Shown here: positions 42,501 to 50,484 of the stretch, piece by piece | How positions within the stretch are numbered: position 1 is the first letter of the stretch | How the letters are laid out: each line of letters opens with the position of its first letter | Notes under the pieces: generated by a model | Database searches by the model: none | What the model was told of the DNA's origin: nothing | Seen by the model: only the letters and a program-made list of their open reading frames with translations | Position numbers and translations under genes: made by a program | Source: Escherichia coli | GTDB taxonomy: Bacteria > Pseudomonadota > Gammaproteobacteria > Enterobacterales > Enterobacteriaceae | Strand: one strand, 5' to 3' | Assembly: GCF_050320075.1 (NCBI RefSeq) | Contig: NZ_CP190018.1 | Length of the DNA: 64,000 nt

Positions 42501-42648
42501 CCACTTCCGGCAGCGCCGAAACGGGCAGGGCGCGATAACCGATAATCCCGGCGAGTAAGATCGCCACCATCAGCAGCGTGGTGGCGACAGGACGCATAAT
42601 AAACAGGCGAGACGGGCCGCCTGTGCTGCTCGGGGGTAACACCTGCAT
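39526..42648 (-). CDS. mdtB: RND multidrug efflux permease MdtB
   Basis: 1040 aa RND transporter, paralogous to the downstream mdtC. Confidence 0.9.
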
Positions 42649-43895
42649 CAGGAGCGTGCTCCTTTTTTCGCGTATTCGCGGCTGGTGGCTTTCTCTTCTG
42701 GAGTGGTGGCGCTCTGGGCTTCCACCACTTCCACTTTCGCCCCTTCGGTCAGGCGATCAATGCCGTCTGTCACCACGCGATCGCCCGCAGAAATACCTGC
42801 ACGGATCACCACTTTCTGACTGTCCTGAATGCCCGGCGTCACCAGATGTTTGCTGACCTTGTTTTCACTATTCAGCACCCAGACAAAATGGCCTTCATTG
42901 CCCATTTGCAGGGCGGCTGATGGGATCACTACGGCGTTTTGTTCGGTGTCGACTAACATGCGCGCGTTAACAAACTGATTGGGAAACAGCGCATCATCCT
43001 GATTATTAAAGCGTGCTTTCACTTTAATCGTACCGGTTGTGGCATCGATTTGGTTATCGAGGCTTAACAGCGTGCCTTCACTTAATTTCTTCGAGTTGGT
43101 GCGATCCCAGGCTTCTACCACCAGCGGTTTTCCGGCTTTCTGCGCCTGCACGACGGTAGCGATATCGCTTTCCGGCAGGGTAAAGAGCAAATCGATAGGA
43201 TGCGTCTGGGTGATCACCACGATCCCGGTGGTATCACCACTGGAGATTTGGTTACCAACATCAACCTGCTTGAGACCAACGCGACCATCGACTGGTGCGG
43301 TGATGCGGCTCCAGTCGAGTTGCAGCTGCGCGCTGGCGACGCTTGCTTCATCAGCCTTAATGGTGCCTTCGGTTTCACTGACCAGCGCCTGTTGGGCATC
43401 CAGCTCCTGACGGGATACGAGATTGGTTTTTGCCAGTTGCTGATAACGCGCCAGGTCACGGCGGGCGTTAGCAAGCGTGGCTTTATCTTTTGCCAGTTGG
43501 CCCTGGGCTTGTGCTAATGCAACTTTGAACTGGCTGGGGTCAATTTCTGCCAGTAAATCGCCTGCTTTGACCTGCTGGCCTTCCTGGAAATGTAACGCCA
43601 TCAGTTGACCGTCCACGCGGCTGCGCACCGTAACAGTATTAGCGGCGGTAATGGTGCCAAGCCCGGTGAGGTAACGCGGAACTGCCTGTTCTACGGCGGT
43701 CGCCGCCTGAACCGGGGCTAATGGGCCGGAACGCATACCACGGCGACCACTCGCTGGCGATTGCTGCGCTTGTTTCGTCGCCCCTGGGGCTGCACTCCGG
43801 GAGTCATTGCGGCCTTGCCAGAACCAGAATGCGGCGATGGCGGCGATAACCACCACGATTACGATTACCCAACGGGATTTATAACTGCCTTTCAT
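42648..43895 (-). CDS. mdtA: RND efflux membrane-fusion (periplasmic adaptor) protein MdtA
   Basis: 415 aa from MKGSYKSRW...; track ORF over-extended upstream to 44042. Confidence 0.9.
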
Positions 43896-44109
43896 CGTTA
43901 AGAGTTTCTCTTCCTGAAACGTTTCGCGGAATGATACTAGTGTAGCCAGCCAATAAGGGAGAAAAATGGAGGAATTATGAAACACTGTCTGGAATCGTCT
44001 GAATGACGGGCACATTTGCGAGCACGCATCCAGTAATAACACAGGAAACTATTTTATCTACGCGTTAGCGATAGACTGCTTGCATGGCGAAAGGAGGTAA
44101 GCCGAAGAT

Positions 44110-44260
44110 TTCAGCGGGACGCTGAAACGGGAAAGCCCCTCCCGAGGAAGGGGCCTTAAATAAGGAAAGGGTCATGATGAAGCTACTCATCATCGTGGTG
44201 CTCTTAGTCATAAGCTTCCCCGCTTACTAAGACTACCAGGGCGGGGGAAACCCCGCTCTA
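44110..44260 (-). ncRNA. sibB: Sib antisense sRNA antitoxin overlapping ibsB (approximate ends)
   Basis: Known Ibs/Sib type I toxin-antitoxin arrangement; hairpin plus U-tract on minus strand upstream of the ibs start; ends not determined. Confidence 0.45.
44174..44230 (+). CDS. ibsB: Type I toxin Ibs (18 aa hydrophobic peptide MMKLLIIVVLLVISFPAY)
   Basis: Peptide read directly; one of two tandem homologous ~240-bp units between mdtA and yegL. Confidence 0.75.
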   Translation: MMKLLIIVVLLVISFPAY

Positions 44261-44439
44261 CCCTCACTCCTGAAAGTATGCCTTCACGATAAGATTGTCA
44301 ATCTGCAGGCTTTGCAGTCTGCGATCCTGCCAGCAAATATTCTTTGCGAGTCGTTACGCAATAATCACACTTGAAACTATTTTATCCGCAAGTCAGCGAT
44401 AGACTGCATTCAGGGCGAAAGGAGGTAAGCCGACGATTT

Positions 44440-44595
44440 CAGCGGGACGCTAAAACGGGGAACCCTCTCCCGGAGAAGAGGGCTTTTAAATAAGGAAAGG
44501 GTTATGATGAAGCACGTCATCATACTGGTGATACTCTTAGTGATTAGCTTCCAGGCTTACTAAGAACACCAGGGGGAGGGGGAAACCTCTCCCTA
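44440..44595 (-). ncRNA. sibA: Sib antisense sRNA antitoxin overlapping ibsA (approximate ends)
   Basis: As for sibB. Confidence 0.45.
44504..44563 (+). CDS. ibsA: Type I toxin Ibs (19 aa MMKHVIILVILLVISFQAY)
   Basis: Peptide read directly; second tandem unit. Confidence 0.75.
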   Translation: MMKHVIILVILLVISFQAY

Positions 44596-44783
44596 ACCCT
44601 CACTCCTGAAATTATGTCACTCCGCCCTTAGTGTCAATCGACGGCTCTCCGTTCTTGCGAGGCGAATAGCAAAATTTTCTGCGCCGCCGGGCCTAATTCT
44701 GAAAGTTTCTTCGTTTGCTCTTATTTCATTATTGCAATCGGTATGATACCGGACCTCAATAATTCTCTAAGAAAGGATTTCTT

Positions 44784-45443
44784 ATGAGCGAACAAATCAC
44801 GTTTGCCACCAGCGATTTTGCCAGTAACCCGGAACCACGTTGCCCCTGCATTTTGCTGCTGGATGTTTCTGGTTCGATGAACGGTAGACCCATTAATGAA
44901 CTTAACGCCGGATTGATTACCTTTCGCGATGAGCTGCTTGCCGACCCGCTGGCCTTAAAAAGAGTGGAACTTGGTATTGTGACGTTCGGCCCGGTGCATG
45001 TGGAACAACCCTTTACCAGCGCCGCTAATTTTTTCCCGCCCATCCTGTTTGCCCAGGGCGATACACCAATGGGTGCCGCCATTACCAAAGCCCTGGATAT
45101 GGTAGAGGAGCGGAAACGTGAGTATCGTGCAAATGGTATTTCGTATTATCGCCCGTGGATTTTCCTGATCACCGATGGCGCTCCAACCGATGAGTGGCAG
45201 GCTGCCGCCAACAAAGTGTTTCAGGGGGAAGAAGATAAGAAGTTTGCCTTCTTTTCCATCGGTGTTCAGGGGGCGGATATGAAGACGCTGGCCCAAATCA
45301 GCGTCCGTCAGCCTTTGTCTCTGCAGGGATTACAATTCCGCGAACTGTTTAGCTGGTTATCCAGTTCACTGCGTTCGGTTTCCCGCTCCACGCCGGGAAC
45401 GGAAGTTGTGCTGGAAGCGCCAAAAGGCTGGACGTCAGTGTGA
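44784..45443 (+). CDS. yegL: von Willebrand factor A domain protein YegL
   Basis: 219 aa with MIDAS-type motif LLLDVSGSM; synteny. Confidence 0.85.
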
Positions 45444-46201
45444 GCTGGCGTCTGGTTTATGCATCCGCTGTTGGAACGTCGCACATTAGCGCTGATTTAC
45501 CTTGTCAGGATGCCTGCCAGATGCAGGTTGCCTGGCTAAATGACCAGCAGCCATTACTGGTGATGTTCCTTGCTGATGGCGCAGGTAGCGTTTCGCAGGG
45601 AGGAGAAGGCGCGAAGCTCGCCGTCAATGAAGCGATGGCGTTTATGGTGCAAAAAGTACAGGACGGTGAATTGGGGCTTAATGATGTCCTCGCCACAAAT
45701 ATGGTACTGACCATTCGTCAACGACTTTTTGCCGAGGCAGAAGCCAAAGCATTAGCAGTTCGCGATTTTGCCTGCACGTTTCTGGGATTGATTTCATCGG
45801 CTAACGGCACATTGATTATGCAAATTGGCGACGGCGGTGTAGTGGTGGATTTTGGTCGTGGTCTGGAACTGCCGCTCACGCCGATGGTGGGTGAATATGC
45901 CAATATGACGCATTTCATTAGCGATGAAGATGCTGTTTCCAGACTGGAAACTTTCACCAGCACTGAGCGTGCGCATAAAGTTGCAGCATTTACGGATGGT
46001 ATTCAGCGACTGGCGTTAAATATGCTGGATAATTCTCCGCATGTGCCTTTCTTTACCCCGTTTTTCAATGGACTGGCGGCAGCAACGCAGGAACAACTCG
46101 ATTTATTACCTGAATTGTTAAAGCAGTTTTTGTCGAGCCCGGCGGTAAACGAGCGTACCGATGATGATAAAACGTTGGCACTGGCGCTGTGGTTACCATG
46201 A
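45440..46201 (+). CDS. pphC: PP2C-type protein phosphatase YegK (PphC)
   Basis: 253 aa, synteny; start overlaps yegL stop. Confidence 0.8.
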
Positions 46202-48138
46202 AACCCACTTTATATACTGCTACTGGTGAGTGCGTTACGCCAGGCCGTGAACTGGGCAAAGGTGGTGAAGGCGCGGTTTATGATATCGAGGAGTTTGTCG
46301 ATAGCGTCGCCAAGATTTATCACACGCCGCCACCCGCCTTAAAACAGGACAAACTTGCCTTTATGGCTGCGACAGCTGACGCGCAGTTGTTGAATTATGT
46401 CGCCTGGCCGCAGGCAACGCTTCACGGTGGACGAGGCGGAAAAGTTATCGGTTTTATGATGCCAAAAGTTTCTGGTAAAGAACCGATTCATATGATCTAT
46501 AGCCCGGCACATCGTCGCCAGAGTTACCCTCATTGTGCGTGGGATTTTCTACTCTATGTTGCGCGCAATATTGCTTCATCTTTTGCTACGGTTCACGAGC
46601 ACGGGCACGTCGTGGGTGACGTAAACCAGAACAGTTTTATGGTAGGTCGCGACAGCAAAGTGGTACTGATTGATAGCGACTCCTTTCAGATTAACGCCAA
46701 TGGCACACTGCATTTATGCGAAGTCGGCGTGTCGCATTTTACGCCGCCAGAGCTACAAACCTTGTCGTCATTTGTCGGCTTTGAACGCACAGAAAATCAC
46801 GATAATTTTGGCCTTGCGTTGCTGATTTTTCACGTCTTGTTTGGTGGCCGGCATCCTTATTCTGGTGTGCCGCTTATCTCTGATGCGGGTAATGCGCTGG
46901 AGACGGATATTACCCATTTCCGTTATGCCTACGCGTCAGATAATCAGCGACGTGGTTTAAAACCGCCGCCACGATCGATTCCGCTATCGATGTTACCGAG
47001 TGATGTTGAAGCCATGTTTCAGCAGGCATTCACGGAAAGTGGCGTGGCAACCGGGCGTCCGACGGCTAAAGCGTGGGTAGCGGCACTTGATTCTCTGCGC
47101 CAACAGTTAAAGAAATGTCCCGTTTCGGCAATGCATGTTTATCCCGCTCATTTGACCGACTGCCCGTGGTGTGCGCTGGATAATCAAGGCGTTATCTATT
47201 TTATTGATCTCGGCGAAGAGGTCATTACCACCAGCGGTGATTTTGTGCTGGCGAAAGTCTGGGCGATGGTGATGGCGTCAGTAGCACCGCCAGCATTGCA
47301 ATTGCCATTACCCGATCATTTCCAACCGACTGGCAGGCCGCTTCCTTTAGGCCTGTTACGGCGCGAATACATCATTCTGATTGAGATCGCACTGTCAGCG
47401 TTATCGCTGTTGCTTTGCGGCCTTCAGGCAGAACCGCGTTATATTATTTTGGTTCCTGTGCTGTCGGCTATCTGGATTATTGGCAGTCTGACAAGCAAAG
47501 CGTACAAAGCAGAAGTTCAGCAACGCCGTGAGGCATTTAATCGCGCGAAAATGGACTATGACCATTTATTCAGCCAGATCCAACAGTTGGGCGGGCTGGA
47601 AGGTTTTATCGCCAAACGGACGATGCTCGAAAAAATGAAGGACGAAATGCTCGGGTTACCGGAAGAAGAAAAACGTGCTCTGGCAGCACTTCACGACACC
47701 GCAAGGGAACGGCAGAAGCAGAAGTTTCTGGAGGGATTTTTTATTGATGTTGCCTCTATTCCCGGCGTTGGCCCTGCGCGTAAAGCGGCGTTACGGTCCT
47801 TTGGTATTGAAACAGCAGCGGATGTTACCCGTCGTGGGGTTAAGCAAGTGAAAGGGTTTGGTGATCATCTGACCCAGGCAGTTATCGACTGGAAAGCAAG
47901 TTGCGAACGCCGTTTTGTGTTCAGGCCGAATGAAGCGGTAACGCCAGCAGACAGACAAGCGGTAATGGCGAAAATGACCGCCAAACGACATCGGCTGGAA
48001 TCGACGTTGACTGTCGGCGCGACAGAGTTGCAGCGATTCCGCCTTCATGCTCCAGCACGGACCATGCCGTTGATGGAACCGTTACGTCAGGCGGCAGAAA
48101 AACTGGCTCAGGCGCAGGCTGATTTAAGCCGCTGCTGA
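46189..48138 (+). CDS. yegI: Ser/Thr protein kinase-like protein YegI
   Basis: 649 aa, kinase-like N-terminal domain, C-terminal TM and helical region; overlaps yegK stop by 13 nt. Confidence 0.8.
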   Translation: MVTMKPTLYTATGECVTPGRELGKGGEGAVYDIEEFVDSVAKIYHTPPPALKQDKLAFMAATADAQLLNYVAWPQATLHGGRGGKVIGFMMPKVSGKEPIHMIYSPAHRRQSYPHCAWDFLLYVARNIASSFATVHEHGHVVGDVNQNSFMVGRDSKVVLIDSDSFQINANGTLHLCEVGVSHFTPPELQTLSSFVGFERTENHDNFGLALLIFHVLFGGRHPYSGVPLISDAGNALETDITHFRYAYASDNQRRGLKPPPRSIPLSMLPSDVEAMFQQAFTESGVATGRPTAKAWVAALDSLRQQLKKCPVSAMHVYPAHLTDCPWCALDNQGVIYFIDLGEEVITTSGDFVLAKVWAMVMASVAPPALQLPLPDHFQPTGRPLPLGLLRREYIILIEIALSALSLLLCGLQAEPRYIILVPVLSAIWIIGSLTSKAYKAEVQQRREAFNRAKMDYDHLFSQIQQLGGLEGFIAKRTMLEKMKDEMLGLPEEEKRALAALHDTARERQKQKFLEGFFIDVASIPGVGPARKAALRSFGIETAADVTRRGVKQVKGFGDHLTQAVIDWKASCERRFVFRPNEAVTPADRQAVMAKMTAKRHRLESTLTVGATELQRFRLHAPARTMPLMEPLRQAAEKLAQAQADLSRC

Positions 48139-48149
48139 GCCATTTTCTT

Positions 48150-49502
48150 TTAACGAAATACCACTTCTGCCCAGCGTGCCAGCCCGGCGGTGACGGAGCC
48201 AAAGTCATCGCCGCCTGCAATCGGAATGCCCGGCAACTGTTCTGCCAGCGCTTTTTTAATCAGCGGCGAACGGGCGCTACCGCCGGTCAGGTAGATAACG
48301 TCCGGTTTTTCCTGGGCGTTATCCAGCGCCAGTTGCACCTGTTCCAGAATCCGCGCCAGTGGCTGGCTGAGGGCGCTTTCCAGCCCTTGCTGGCTAATCA
48401 GCGTAGCCAGTTCATCGCTGATAAACGGCAGTGAGGCGCGGGTTTCCGCAGTGCTTGAAAGGGCGATTTTGCTCTCTTCTGCGCTACGCACCAGGCGATA
48501 GCTTAAACGCTGACGCCAGACTTTCTGTAACAGGGCCACTTTTTCCGGTTCGCGGGCATCGCGTACCAGATCGTTAAGCAGACGACCGTTGGCACTACTG
48601 TAGAAATCACTCTGTGCAGGAACGTCGTTGATGGCAACCGCATTCCACCACGGCAGAATCGGCAGGGCGATGCCTTTTTCGGTTTCGCCACCCATGCCCA
48701 GTAACGGCATCAGGTTTTTAAACGCCAGCGCGATATCCAGATCGTTACCGCCAATACGGCAACCACTGTGACCCAGCAGGCTGGCTTCACGATCGAGACG
48801 CGAACGCCACTGCGGCCCCATCAGCAGCAATGAACAGTCAGTCGTACCACCGCCGATATCCACCACCAGCACCCGTTTTTCTTCCTGCAAGGTGGCTTCG
48901 TAATCCAGCCCAGCCGCGACCGGCTCGTACTGGAATACCACGTCCCTGAATCCGGCACGCTTCGCCGCGCGTTCCAGAATCCCTTGCGCCTGGGTGTTTG
49001 CTTCATCACCGCCCAGCCCCTGGAAGTTGATCGGACGACCAATCACCGCCTGAGTAATCGCTTCTGGCAGTTGTGCCTGCGCCTGCTGGCGAATGTGCAA
49101 CATCATTGCGCAGACCAGATCCTCAAACAGCGCTACCTGCTGCGGTTTTAAGCCGCTGGCACCGAGGAACGATTTTGGTGATTTCACAAACCACACTTCT
49201 TCTGGATCATCAATGTACTGTGCCAGTGAGGAAAGACCGAACTGCACGCTTTTCGCCGTAACATCGATATCTTCTTCGCGGTTATAACGAATCGCCCGAC
49301 GTAACAGCGCCTGCGTTTCATCGTCGTCTGCCGGAACATCATGATGGCGGTACAGCCATTCGCTTACCGCTTCACGCGTTGGCGCGCAAAGCATTGAAGG
49401 CAGCAGCGTGCTGTCGTTTTCCATTTTTAGCAAATGCGGTTTACCGTCACGCATGACCGCCACTGAACAGTTTGCTGTACCGTAATCAAAACCAATAAAC
49501 AC
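48150..49502 (-). CDS. yegD: Hsp70-family ATPase-like protein YegD
   Basis: 450 aa from GTG (MFIGFDYGTANCSVAV...), actin-fold/Hsp70 motifs; track ORF over-extended. Confidence 0.8.
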   Translation of the reverse strand: MFIGFDYGTANCSVAVMRDGKPHLLKMENDSTLLPSMLCAPTREAVSEWLYRHHDVPADDDETQALLRRAIRYNREEDIDVTAKSVQFGLSSLAQYIDDPEEVWFVKSPKSFLGASGLKPQQVALFEDLVCAMMLHIRQQAQAQLPEAITQAVIGRPINFQGLGGDEANTQAQGILERAAKRAGFRDVVFQYEPVAAGLDYEATLQEEKRVLVVDIGGGTTDCSLLLMGPQWRSRLDREASLLGHSGCRIGGNDLDIALAFKNLMPLLGMGGETEKGIALPILPWWNAVAINDVPAQSDFYSSANGRLLNDLVRDAREPEKVALLQKVWRQRLSYRLVRSAEESKIALSSTAETRASLPFISDELATLISQQGLESALSQPLARILEQVQLALDNAQEKPDVIYLTGGSARSPLIKKALAEQLPGIPIAGGDDFGSVTAGLARWAEVVFR

Positions 49503-49635
49503 GAAATAATCCCCATGCCGGTGAAGAAGGGGCGTGACTTTAGCGAAATGTTGCCGTCGCGACAACCGGAATATGAAAGCAAAGCGCAGCGTCTGAATAA
49601 CGTTTATGCTGAAAGCGGATGAATAAGGAGATGCG

Positions 49636-50484
49636 ATGTATACCCTGAACTGGCAGCCGCCGTATGACTGGTCGTGGATGTTGGGATTTCTCGCCGCCCG
49701 TGCGGTGAGCAGTGTGGAAACGGTCGCGGACAGTTATTATGCCCGTAGTCTGGCGGTGGGCGAATATCGCGGCGTGGTGACTGCTATTCCGGATATAGCC
49801 CGCCATACTCTGCACATAAATTTAAGTGCAGGTTTAGAACCTGTTGCCGCAAAGTGTCTGGCGAAAATGAGCCGCCTGTTTGATCTGCAATGTAACCCAC
49901 AAATTGTTAACGGTGCGTTGGGCAGGTTAGGCGCGGCGCGGCCCGGATTGCGTTTACCCGGCTGTGTTGATGCTTTTGAGCAGGGCGTGCGGGCGATTTT
50001 AGGCCAACTGGTGAGCGTGGCGATGGCGGCAAAATTGACCGCCAGAGTGGCACAGCTTTATGGCGAACGGCTGGATGATTTTCCGGAGTATATCTGCTTC
50101 CCGACGCCTCAGCGGCTGGCAGCAGCAGACCCGCAGGCATTAAAAGCGTTAGGTATGCCGTTGAAACGGGCAGAGGCGCTGATTCATCTGGCAAATGCGG
50201 CGCTGGAGGGCACCTTACCAATGACAATACCGGGCGATGTGGAGCAGGCGATGAAAACGCTGCAAACTTTTCCGGGTATCGGGCGCTGGACGGCGAATTA
50301 TTTTGCTTTGCGTGGCTGGCAGGCGAAAGATGTTTTCCTGCCGGATGATTATCTGATTAAACAGCGATTTCCGGGAATGACACCGGCGCAAATCCGCCGT
50401 TATGCCGAGCGCTGGAAGCCCTGGCGTTCTTATGCGCTGTTGCATATCTGGTATACGGAAGGCTGGCAACCAGACGAAGCATGA
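49636..50484 (+). CDS. alkA: 3-methyladenine DNA glycosylase II AlkA
   Basis: 282 aa, synteny, HhH-GPD family features. Confidence 0.9.
   Translation: MYTLNWQPPYDWSWMLGFLAARAVSSVETVADSYYARSLAVGEYRGVVTAIPDIARHTLHINLSAGLEPVAAKCLAKMSRLFDLQCNPQIVNGALGRLGAARPGLRLPGCVDAFEQGVRAILGQLVSVAMAAKLTARVAQLYGERLDDFPEYICFPTPQRLAAADPQALKALGMPLKRAEALIHLANAALEGTLPMTIPGDVEQAMKTLQTFPGIGRWTANYFALRGWQAKDVFLPDDYLIKQRFPGMTPAQIRRYAERWKPWRSYALLHIWYTEGWQPDEA

Follow-up and report, generated by a model that had tools for sequence, protein, structure and literature searches.

Does the Escherichia coli strain studied here lack yegJ, the small gene that in K-12 lies between the protein phosphatase gene pphC (yegK) and the protein kinase gene yegI, and if so, which of the two arrangements came first? 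The sequence in question, hereafter the window, is the whole stretch of 64,000 nucleotides taken from contig NZ_CP190018.1 (assembly GCF_050320075.1), in which yegL, pphC and yegI form an uninterrupted triad. We put the probability at about 0.88 that the window shows a horizontally acquired signalling triad of the TerY-P type in its compact, ancestral form, and that the K-12 arrangement is a derived cassette allele, old and of one origin, which is present in about 36% of the genomes and has been moved by short recombination tracts.

An operon without yegJ is a correct, ordinary and already known finding. The strain difference has been published, the compact form having been described for REL606, O157:H7 and most pathogenic strains and yegJ for K-12 strains (Rajagopalan et al., 2018, 10.1101/303594; Rajagopalan and Dworkin, 2020, 10.1101/819920), and it was restated in PMC13232886, according to which yegJ is found only in K strains. 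To this account we add allele frequencies in 5426 genomes, the probable polarity of the change, an exact replacement of 50 bp by 785 bp with a homologous but foreign yegI tip, an apparently single origin of the cassette, a probable 256-bp recombination footprint and a view of the triad as an Escherichia-specific island. These are modest refinements and do not describe a new kind of system.

A Compact Operon in the Window

The DNA is chromosomal E. coli sequence: a query of 6.5 kb spanning the locus was 100% identical to several complete genomes and matched 5423 of 5426 E. coli genomes. Gene coordinates were taken from the open reading frame (ORF) listing of the window and from a genome of 100% identity annotated in RefSeq, and both agree. 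Three genes follow each other on the plus strand, namely yegL (44784-45443), coding for a vWA protein, pphC (45440-46201), coding for a PP2C-type Ser/Thr phosphatase of 253 amino acids, and, as the third gene of the triad, yegI (46198-48138), coding for a membrane Ser/Thr kinase of 646 amino acids, the length of the REL606 protein. The yegL/pphC junction reads CAGTGTGAGC, in which the GTG start of pphC lies over the TGA stop of yegL (GTGA, 45440-45443), and the pphC/yegI junction reads TTACCATGAAACCC, in which the ATG start of yegI lies over the TGA stop of pphC (ATGA, 46198-46201). Neither the ORF listing nor the annotation has a gene between pphC and yegI, or room for one, and K-12 YegJ found no match in the whole window (tblastn, best E = 9.8).

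The initial annotation of this DNA had given a K-12 gene order of yegD, yegI, yegJ, yegK and yegL and offered two alternatives, that the strain lacks yegJ or that this order is imperfect. The order proved right, and the strain lacks yegJ. The order in MG1655 (NC_000913.3) is alkA (b2068), yegD (b2069), yegI (b2070), yegJ (b2071, on the opposite strand), pphC (b2072) and yegL (b2073), and an alignment with K-12 showed that the arrangements truly differ, the overlap of the window being absent from K-12. The same annotation had also seen that pphC and yegI are co-directional and overlap, which stands, but its overlap of 13 nt does not. That length corresponds to the first possible yegI start, GTG at 46189, which gives the longest ORF (649 amino acids vs. 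646 annotated), and it arises because the longest-ORF listing overshoots the annotated start. Similar overshoots were seen for yegD (471 amino acids from a TTG, 48150-49565, vs. 450 annotated) and for mdtA (464 amino acids from a GTG vs. 415 annotated).

Starting from the annotated ATG at 46198, the overlap is most likely 4 nt, because 19 of 76 homologous loci, including those of four other Escherichia lineages and Klebsiella spallanzanii, show an NTGA overlap, and because a 4-nt ATGA overlap of pphC and yegI has been reported for REL606 and O157:H7 (Rajagopalan and Dworkin, 2020, 10.1101/819920). The operon of those strains has the same gene order, a yegI of 646 amino acids (1941 bp) and no yegJ; the window represents another strain with this allele. 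The initial annotation had further proposed that, if the absence of yegJ is real, the kinase, phosphatase and vWA genes make up a tight operon in this lineage. Two 4-nt overlaps and a conserved arrangement are consistent with such an operon, but it is not special to the lineage, being present in 64% of the complete E. coli genomes.

Replacement of the Junction in K-12

The window was aligned with a K-12-like genome and with MG1655 in order to compare the junctions. In MG1655 (b2069-b2073) the flanking genes are the same as in the window, and yegL, yegI and yegD are 99.6-100% identical outside the junction. Homology stops after GCGCTGTGG (window position 46192) and restarts at GGCCGTGAACTGGGC (window position 46243). 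In this interval the window has 50 bp (46193-46242, plus strand), which code for the last two codons and the stop of pphC and the first 15 codons of yegI, whereas the K-12 segment measures 785 bp and is thus 735 bp longer. Since each allele has a segment of its own, 50 bp in the one and 785 bp in the other, the two differ by replacement and not by simple insertion.

The cassette of K-12 supplies a different tail for pphC, with AE and a stop in place of the LP and stop of the window, followed by a strong hairpin with an 11-bp stem (-21.5 kcal/mol, z = -4.2), by yegJ on the opposite strand (153 amino acids, DUF2314 at 2.4e-25) and by a spacer of 199 bp and 29% GC upstream of yegI, in which 8 promoter-like sites were counted vs. 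3.0 ± 1.7 in shuffled sequence. It ends in a yegI start region of its own, which has 17 codons, MKTNIKVFTSTGELTTL, vs. 15 in the window. The GC content of the cassette is 37.8%, as compared with 50-53% in the three operon genes and about 51% in the flanks. The tip of K-12 YegI, VFTSTGELTTL, matches the family pattern [LF][YFV]T[SA]xG-x4-[ILV]-G with exact spacing, and its DNA is about 55% identical to that of the window by our codon-by-codon count on the alignment. The right boundary of the cassette coincides with the exact start of the stretch coding for the invariant GRELGKGGEG, and the left boundary lies just past the conserved LALALW.

Allele Frequencies and Recombination

The junction of the window (71-bp query) was present in 3471 of the 5426 complete E. 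coli genomes and the K-12 cassette in 1937 (about 36%). Together these counts make 5408, below the total, which fits two mutually exclusive alleles. All 1943 matches to the yegJ cassette were chromosomal, and among the matches listed every one adjoined yegI. The statement that yegJ occurs only in K strains (PMC13232886) is too narrow, as 36% of the complete genomes carry it, including copies that are 5-7% diverged from K-12. Overall, the cassette copies are 93-100% identical among E. coli. Four divergent copies (loci L001, L003, L004 and L005, up to 7% apart) have the same boundaries, which argues for a single origin.

With the cassette set aside, 17 mismatches in about 5.1 kb separate the window from the K-12-like genome, with a difference of ~0.15% in the flanks. 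Ten of the 17 fall within a patch of 256 bp on the plus strand (45904-46159, 3.9%) that abuts the allele-specific segment, and the other seven are spread over about 4.8 kb. The patch is the probable footprint of the recombination tract that swapped the allele, and the pattern fits an exchange of alleles between otherwise near-identical backgrounds by short homologous import. A halo of ancient haplotype around the cassette was considered for the comparison of K-12 with the window and rejected, the flanks being near-identical and the divergence of 10-13% in the middle of pphC arising whatever the yegJ state.

A different kind of variation was seen in the middle of pphC (45493-45892, 400 bp), which is hypervariable in Escherichia, with pairwise differences of 8-13% between E. 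coli strains and 7-22% between species; in the same strains yegL, yegI and yegD differ by only 2-5%. The variation is mosaic regardless of the yegJ state, and K-12 equals the window there. It could reflect diversifying selection or the import of diverged alleles.

The Compact Form as the Probable Ancestral State

We searched for the ancestral state with PphC as the query in one genome per species, which gave 79 loci, and measured the gap between the PP2C and kinase genes in the 76 that hold both. These 76 loci span the Burkholderiales, Pseudomonas, Frankia, Myxococcota, Planctomycetota, Chloroflexota, Paenibacillus and others. The order vWA-PP2C-kinase was found in 74 of the 79 loci, 71 of the 76 had a gap of -35 to +20 nt, and YegJ was encoded at none of the non-E. 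coli loci of the scan. A 4-nt overlap together with a YegI N-terminus of the window type was present in E. whittamii, in two further Escherichia species, in the divergent "E. coli" E69 and in K. spallanzanii. Because the overlap is common to other Escherichia and K. spallanzanii, and because 71 of 76 loci are compact, the yegL-pphC-yegI form is best read as ancestral and the K-12 cassette as a derived, old allele of single origin. Outside E. coli, a large distance from the PP2C gene to the kinase gene, 1219 nt, was seen at one locus only, in a Melainabacteria metagenome-assembled genome (L081, 6768-7988), which could represent an independent insertion at the same junction.

The triad itself appears to have been acquired. 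In Citrobacter freundii, Salmonella enterica and Pseudocitrobacter the genes are ordered dgcE-alkA-yegD-ibs-mdtA, with neither triad nor yegJ, and the closest PphC relatives outside Escherichia are only 62-64% identical. The empty syntenic sites and the distant relatives together indicate that the triad forms an island specific to Escherichia, located between yegD and ibs/mdtA. In other genera, homologues of the triad are also carried by conjugative megaplasmids. E. albertii and E. fergusonii were not among the PphC relatives in the one-genome-per-species scan, which was not aimed at them. The neighboring gene yegD sits beside mdtA in Citrobacter, Salmonella, Pseudocitrobacter and Superficieibacter, all of which lack the triad there, and is absent from the triad loci outside Escherichia, which identifies it as a resident gene and not as part of the mobile triad.

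Protein Domains and Likeness to TerY-P Systems

YegL matches Pfam VWA (E = 7e-10) and VWA_2 (1.8e-7) and contains the DxSxS metal-site motif (LLLDVSGSM), and the TerY model of PADLOC is matched at only E = 0.0097. These matches establish the vWA fold but no close kinship with TerY. PphC matches PP2C_2 (PF13672, E = 1e-47) over positions 1-204 of the 209 in the profile. YegI matched no Pfam kinase family at E < 0.01, its only match being a weak one to HHH_5 (residues 515-550). Kinase similarity was weak in PADLOC models (1.5e-4 to 4e-3) and in the NleH1 kinase in PDB (E = 0.0094), and the glycine loop GKGGEG is conserved among the homologues. Just after the kinase domain lies a C-x5-H-x8-C-x2-C motif (residues 307-325; 47116-47172, plus strand), whose C307, H313, C322, W324 and C325 are invariant in 54 of 54 aligned homologues. 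The segment is covered by no Pfam family, and no Pfam zinc-ribbon or OB family was matched; we consider it the probable counterpart of the zinc-binding module of TerY-P kinases.

PphC is a Mn-dependent PP2C-like phosphatase that dephosphorylates YegI (Rajagopalan et al., 2018, 10.1101/303594), and YegI is an inner-membrane Ser/Thr kinase with Hanks motifs that autophosphorylates (Rajagopalan and Dworkin, 2020, 10.1101/819920). The TerY-P triad, as summarized in PMC11090510, consists of a vWA protein, a PP2C phosphatase and a Ser/Thr kinase with a C-terminal zinc ribbon (Anantharaman et al., 2012), and in the defence variant described there an OB fold replaces the zinc ribbon on the kinase. The yeg triad follows the domain order of this triad (Anantharaman et al., 2012) and of the anti-phage module of Gao et al. 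(2020), its vWA and PP2C domains being supported by profile matches and its kinase by the published biochemistry, and it is likewise tightly linked, co-directional and widespread, including on conjugative megaplasmids. It differs in that YegI carries on with two membrane helices (Rajagopalan and Dworkin, 2020, 10.1101/819920) and the weak helix-hairpin-helix match instead of an OB fold. In PADLOC-DB v2, only marginal single-protein matches were obtained for the triad, and none for PphC or YegJ. A label as a known anti-phage defence system was therefore rejected. We know of no defence or tellurite phenotype for yegL-pphC-yegI in E. coli.

Predicted Consequences for Expression

The anatomy of the compact allele suggests that its three genes would be carried on one transcript. 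Through the 4-nt stop/start overlaps (GTGA and ATGA), the translation of each downstream gene may be coupled to that of the preceding one, which would set a fixed ratio of the YegI kinase to its antagonist, the PphC phosphatase. In K-12, the AT-rich cassette of 785 bp probably replaced the 50 bp, thereby parting yegI from pphC and giving yegI an upstream region of its own. The convergent yegJ and the hairpin are expected to end the yegL-pphC message, and yegI would then need the AT-rich spacer in order to be transcribed and to begin translation by itself. Short tracts of homologous recombination would then transfer the cassette between backgrounds. A consensus promoter scan of the window operon gave no convincing promoter on the plus strand, and the number of sites was not above that in shuffled sequence.

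At this locus the K-12 reference has the minority state, and most likely a derived one. Studies of YegI and PphC, and conclusions on their regulation drawn from K-12, should allow for the fact that in most E. coli the two are encoded in what appears to be a coupled operon.

Origin of the Cassette and Alternative Explanations

The closest relatives of YegJ outside E. coli were found in Superficieibacter electus and a related metagenome contig, with 75-76% amino acid identity. In both, yegJ is located between yegD and mdtA in the K-12 orientation, and the triad is absent. The nucleotide identity to Superficieibacter is 75% for yegJ, as compared with 78-79% for yegD and 71-72% for mdtA. More distant homologues of YegJ lie in unrelated gene contexts, and a search with the 40 N-terminal amino acids of K-12 YegI matched only short E. 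coli fragments. YegJ variants of 78-91% identity were examined as candidate donors and discarded, as all came from E. coli assemblies that were frameshifted or of low quality and in which yegJ had its usual K-12 surroundings. An origin of YegJ in mobile elements was likewise rejected, with no phage match and with mislabelled E. coli chromosomes as the only close "plasmid" matches.

Several other explanations of the difference between the window and K-12 have to be weighed. That the missing yegJ is an artefact of assembly or reading, or that the gene lies elsewhere in the genome, is worth raising because only 64 kb of this genome were inspected, within which YegJ has no match; but the same junction sequence recurs in 3471 of 5426 complete genomes, so that neither chance nor an assembly artefact explains the absence, and the chromosomal, yegI-adjoining cassette matches and the allele counts below the genome total make this explanation exceedingly improbable. 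The reverse polarity, according to which K-12 retains the ancestral arrangement in E. coli and the lineage of the window lost yegJ through deletion, derives some support from the Superficieibacter orthologue in the same interval and orientation and from the age of the cassette within E. coli, as indicated by copies up to 7% divergent. However, a simple deletion cannot yield the 50 bp of the window, which are absent from the K-12 allele and encode the same N-terminus and ATGA/GTGA overlap as in other Escherichia and K. spallanzanii. Together with the lack of both yegJ and triad at the site in Citrobacter, Salmonella and Pseudocitrobacter, and with the compactness of 71 of 76 other loci, this makes the loss of yegJ very unlikely. 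A related idea, that yegJ resided at the site before the triad arrived, was also set aside, as the support from Superficieibacter is weakened by the yegD-ibs-mdtA order, with neither element, in the three other genera.

If the cassette is derived, it remains to explain where it came from. The view that it is a remnant eroded by recombination is our best account of its origin. In its explicit form, this account takes the cassette to be all that is left of a triad haplotype that was once far more diverged (yegL'-pphC'-yegJ-yegI') and whose outer parts were overwritten, inward up to the heterology, by homologous recombination with the compact allele, and we give it a chance somewhat short of even. 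It would explain why the K-12 YegI tip fits the family pattern with exact spacing at such low nucleotide identity to the tip in the window, why the boundaries fall at conserved coding stretches and why the flanks are otherwise near-identical. Yet neither the diverged haplotype nor a donor was found, all non-E. coli yegJ homologues examined being in unrelated contexts free of kinase and phosphatase genes, and the same observations could have arisen by an insertion in situ, after which the first 17 codons changed rapidly with a bias toward AT. A broader version is a rather long shot: the second triad haplotype would once have occupied a yegD-mdtA hotspot, its remnant would have been kept in roughly one third of the species, in an old polymorphism of two alleles, by the uncoupled expression of kinase and phosphatase and perhaps by an activity of YegJ, as a secreted DUF2314 protein, and yegJ in Superficieibacter would reflect shared ancestry.

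Returning to the compact ancestral form and its derived cassette allele, four points weigh against this interpretation. The presence of yegJ at the same interval in Superficieibacter is left unexplained by a simple model of insertion of yegJ into the operon. No donor of the cassette was found: the YegJ homologues of 55-76% identity were traced to contigs, and none had a kinase or PP2C gene beside it. Both co-transcription and translational coupling are predicted from gene anatomy, and robust transcription at this site could not be demonstrated by the original authors (Rajagopalan et al., 2018, 10.1101/303594). Finally, the choice of ATG 46198 over GTG 46189 as the probable yegI start is based on annotation and comparison.

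In Superficieibacter electus (L085, 6900-11300), genes of the toxin-immunity type (SUKH_5/SMI1, Tli3, Tle3_C, Imm52 and DUF1240) are located between yegJ and mdtA. Because this cluster sits there, the yegD-mdtA interval looks like an insertion hotspot in the Enterobacteriaceae. The N-terminus of YegJ is a typical export signal, MKKILLMLSLLFFTTAGFS, and in view of this signal-peptide-like sequence and the immunity-like neighbors, a role of YegJ in the envelope or in immunity is possible. According to PMC13232886, YegJ is toxic when overexpressed, renders the envelope leaky and induces yegD, and it bound RNase E in two-hybrid and pull-down assays. A cytoplasmic partner is surprising for a protein with an N-terminal export signal, and secretion stress may be behind part of the phenotype.

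Flanking Genes

Downstream of the triad and convergent with yegI, at a distance of 11 bp, lies yegD (48150-49502, minus strand), which encodes an Hsp70/actin-like ATPase (Pfam HSP70) and is followed by alkA (49636-50484, plus strand). On the other side, mdtA is on the minus strand (42648-44042 as the longest ORF), and two ibs/Sib toxin-antitoxin units are annotated between mdtA and yegL. The two Sib antitoxin RNAs (Rfam RF00113, 142 and 150 bits) are located at 44159-44301 and 44489-44637 on the minus strand, and the ibs toxin ORFs lie opposite to them on the plus strand, at about 44174-44230 and 44504-44563. The ibs copy number is polymorphic, with two copies in the window, three in E. coli L003 and L005, and one in Citrobacter and Salmonella. 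In E. coli SI-NP020 (L005, 5690-6794), the N-terminus of yegD is gone through an insertion that starts with a gene of a recombinase family.

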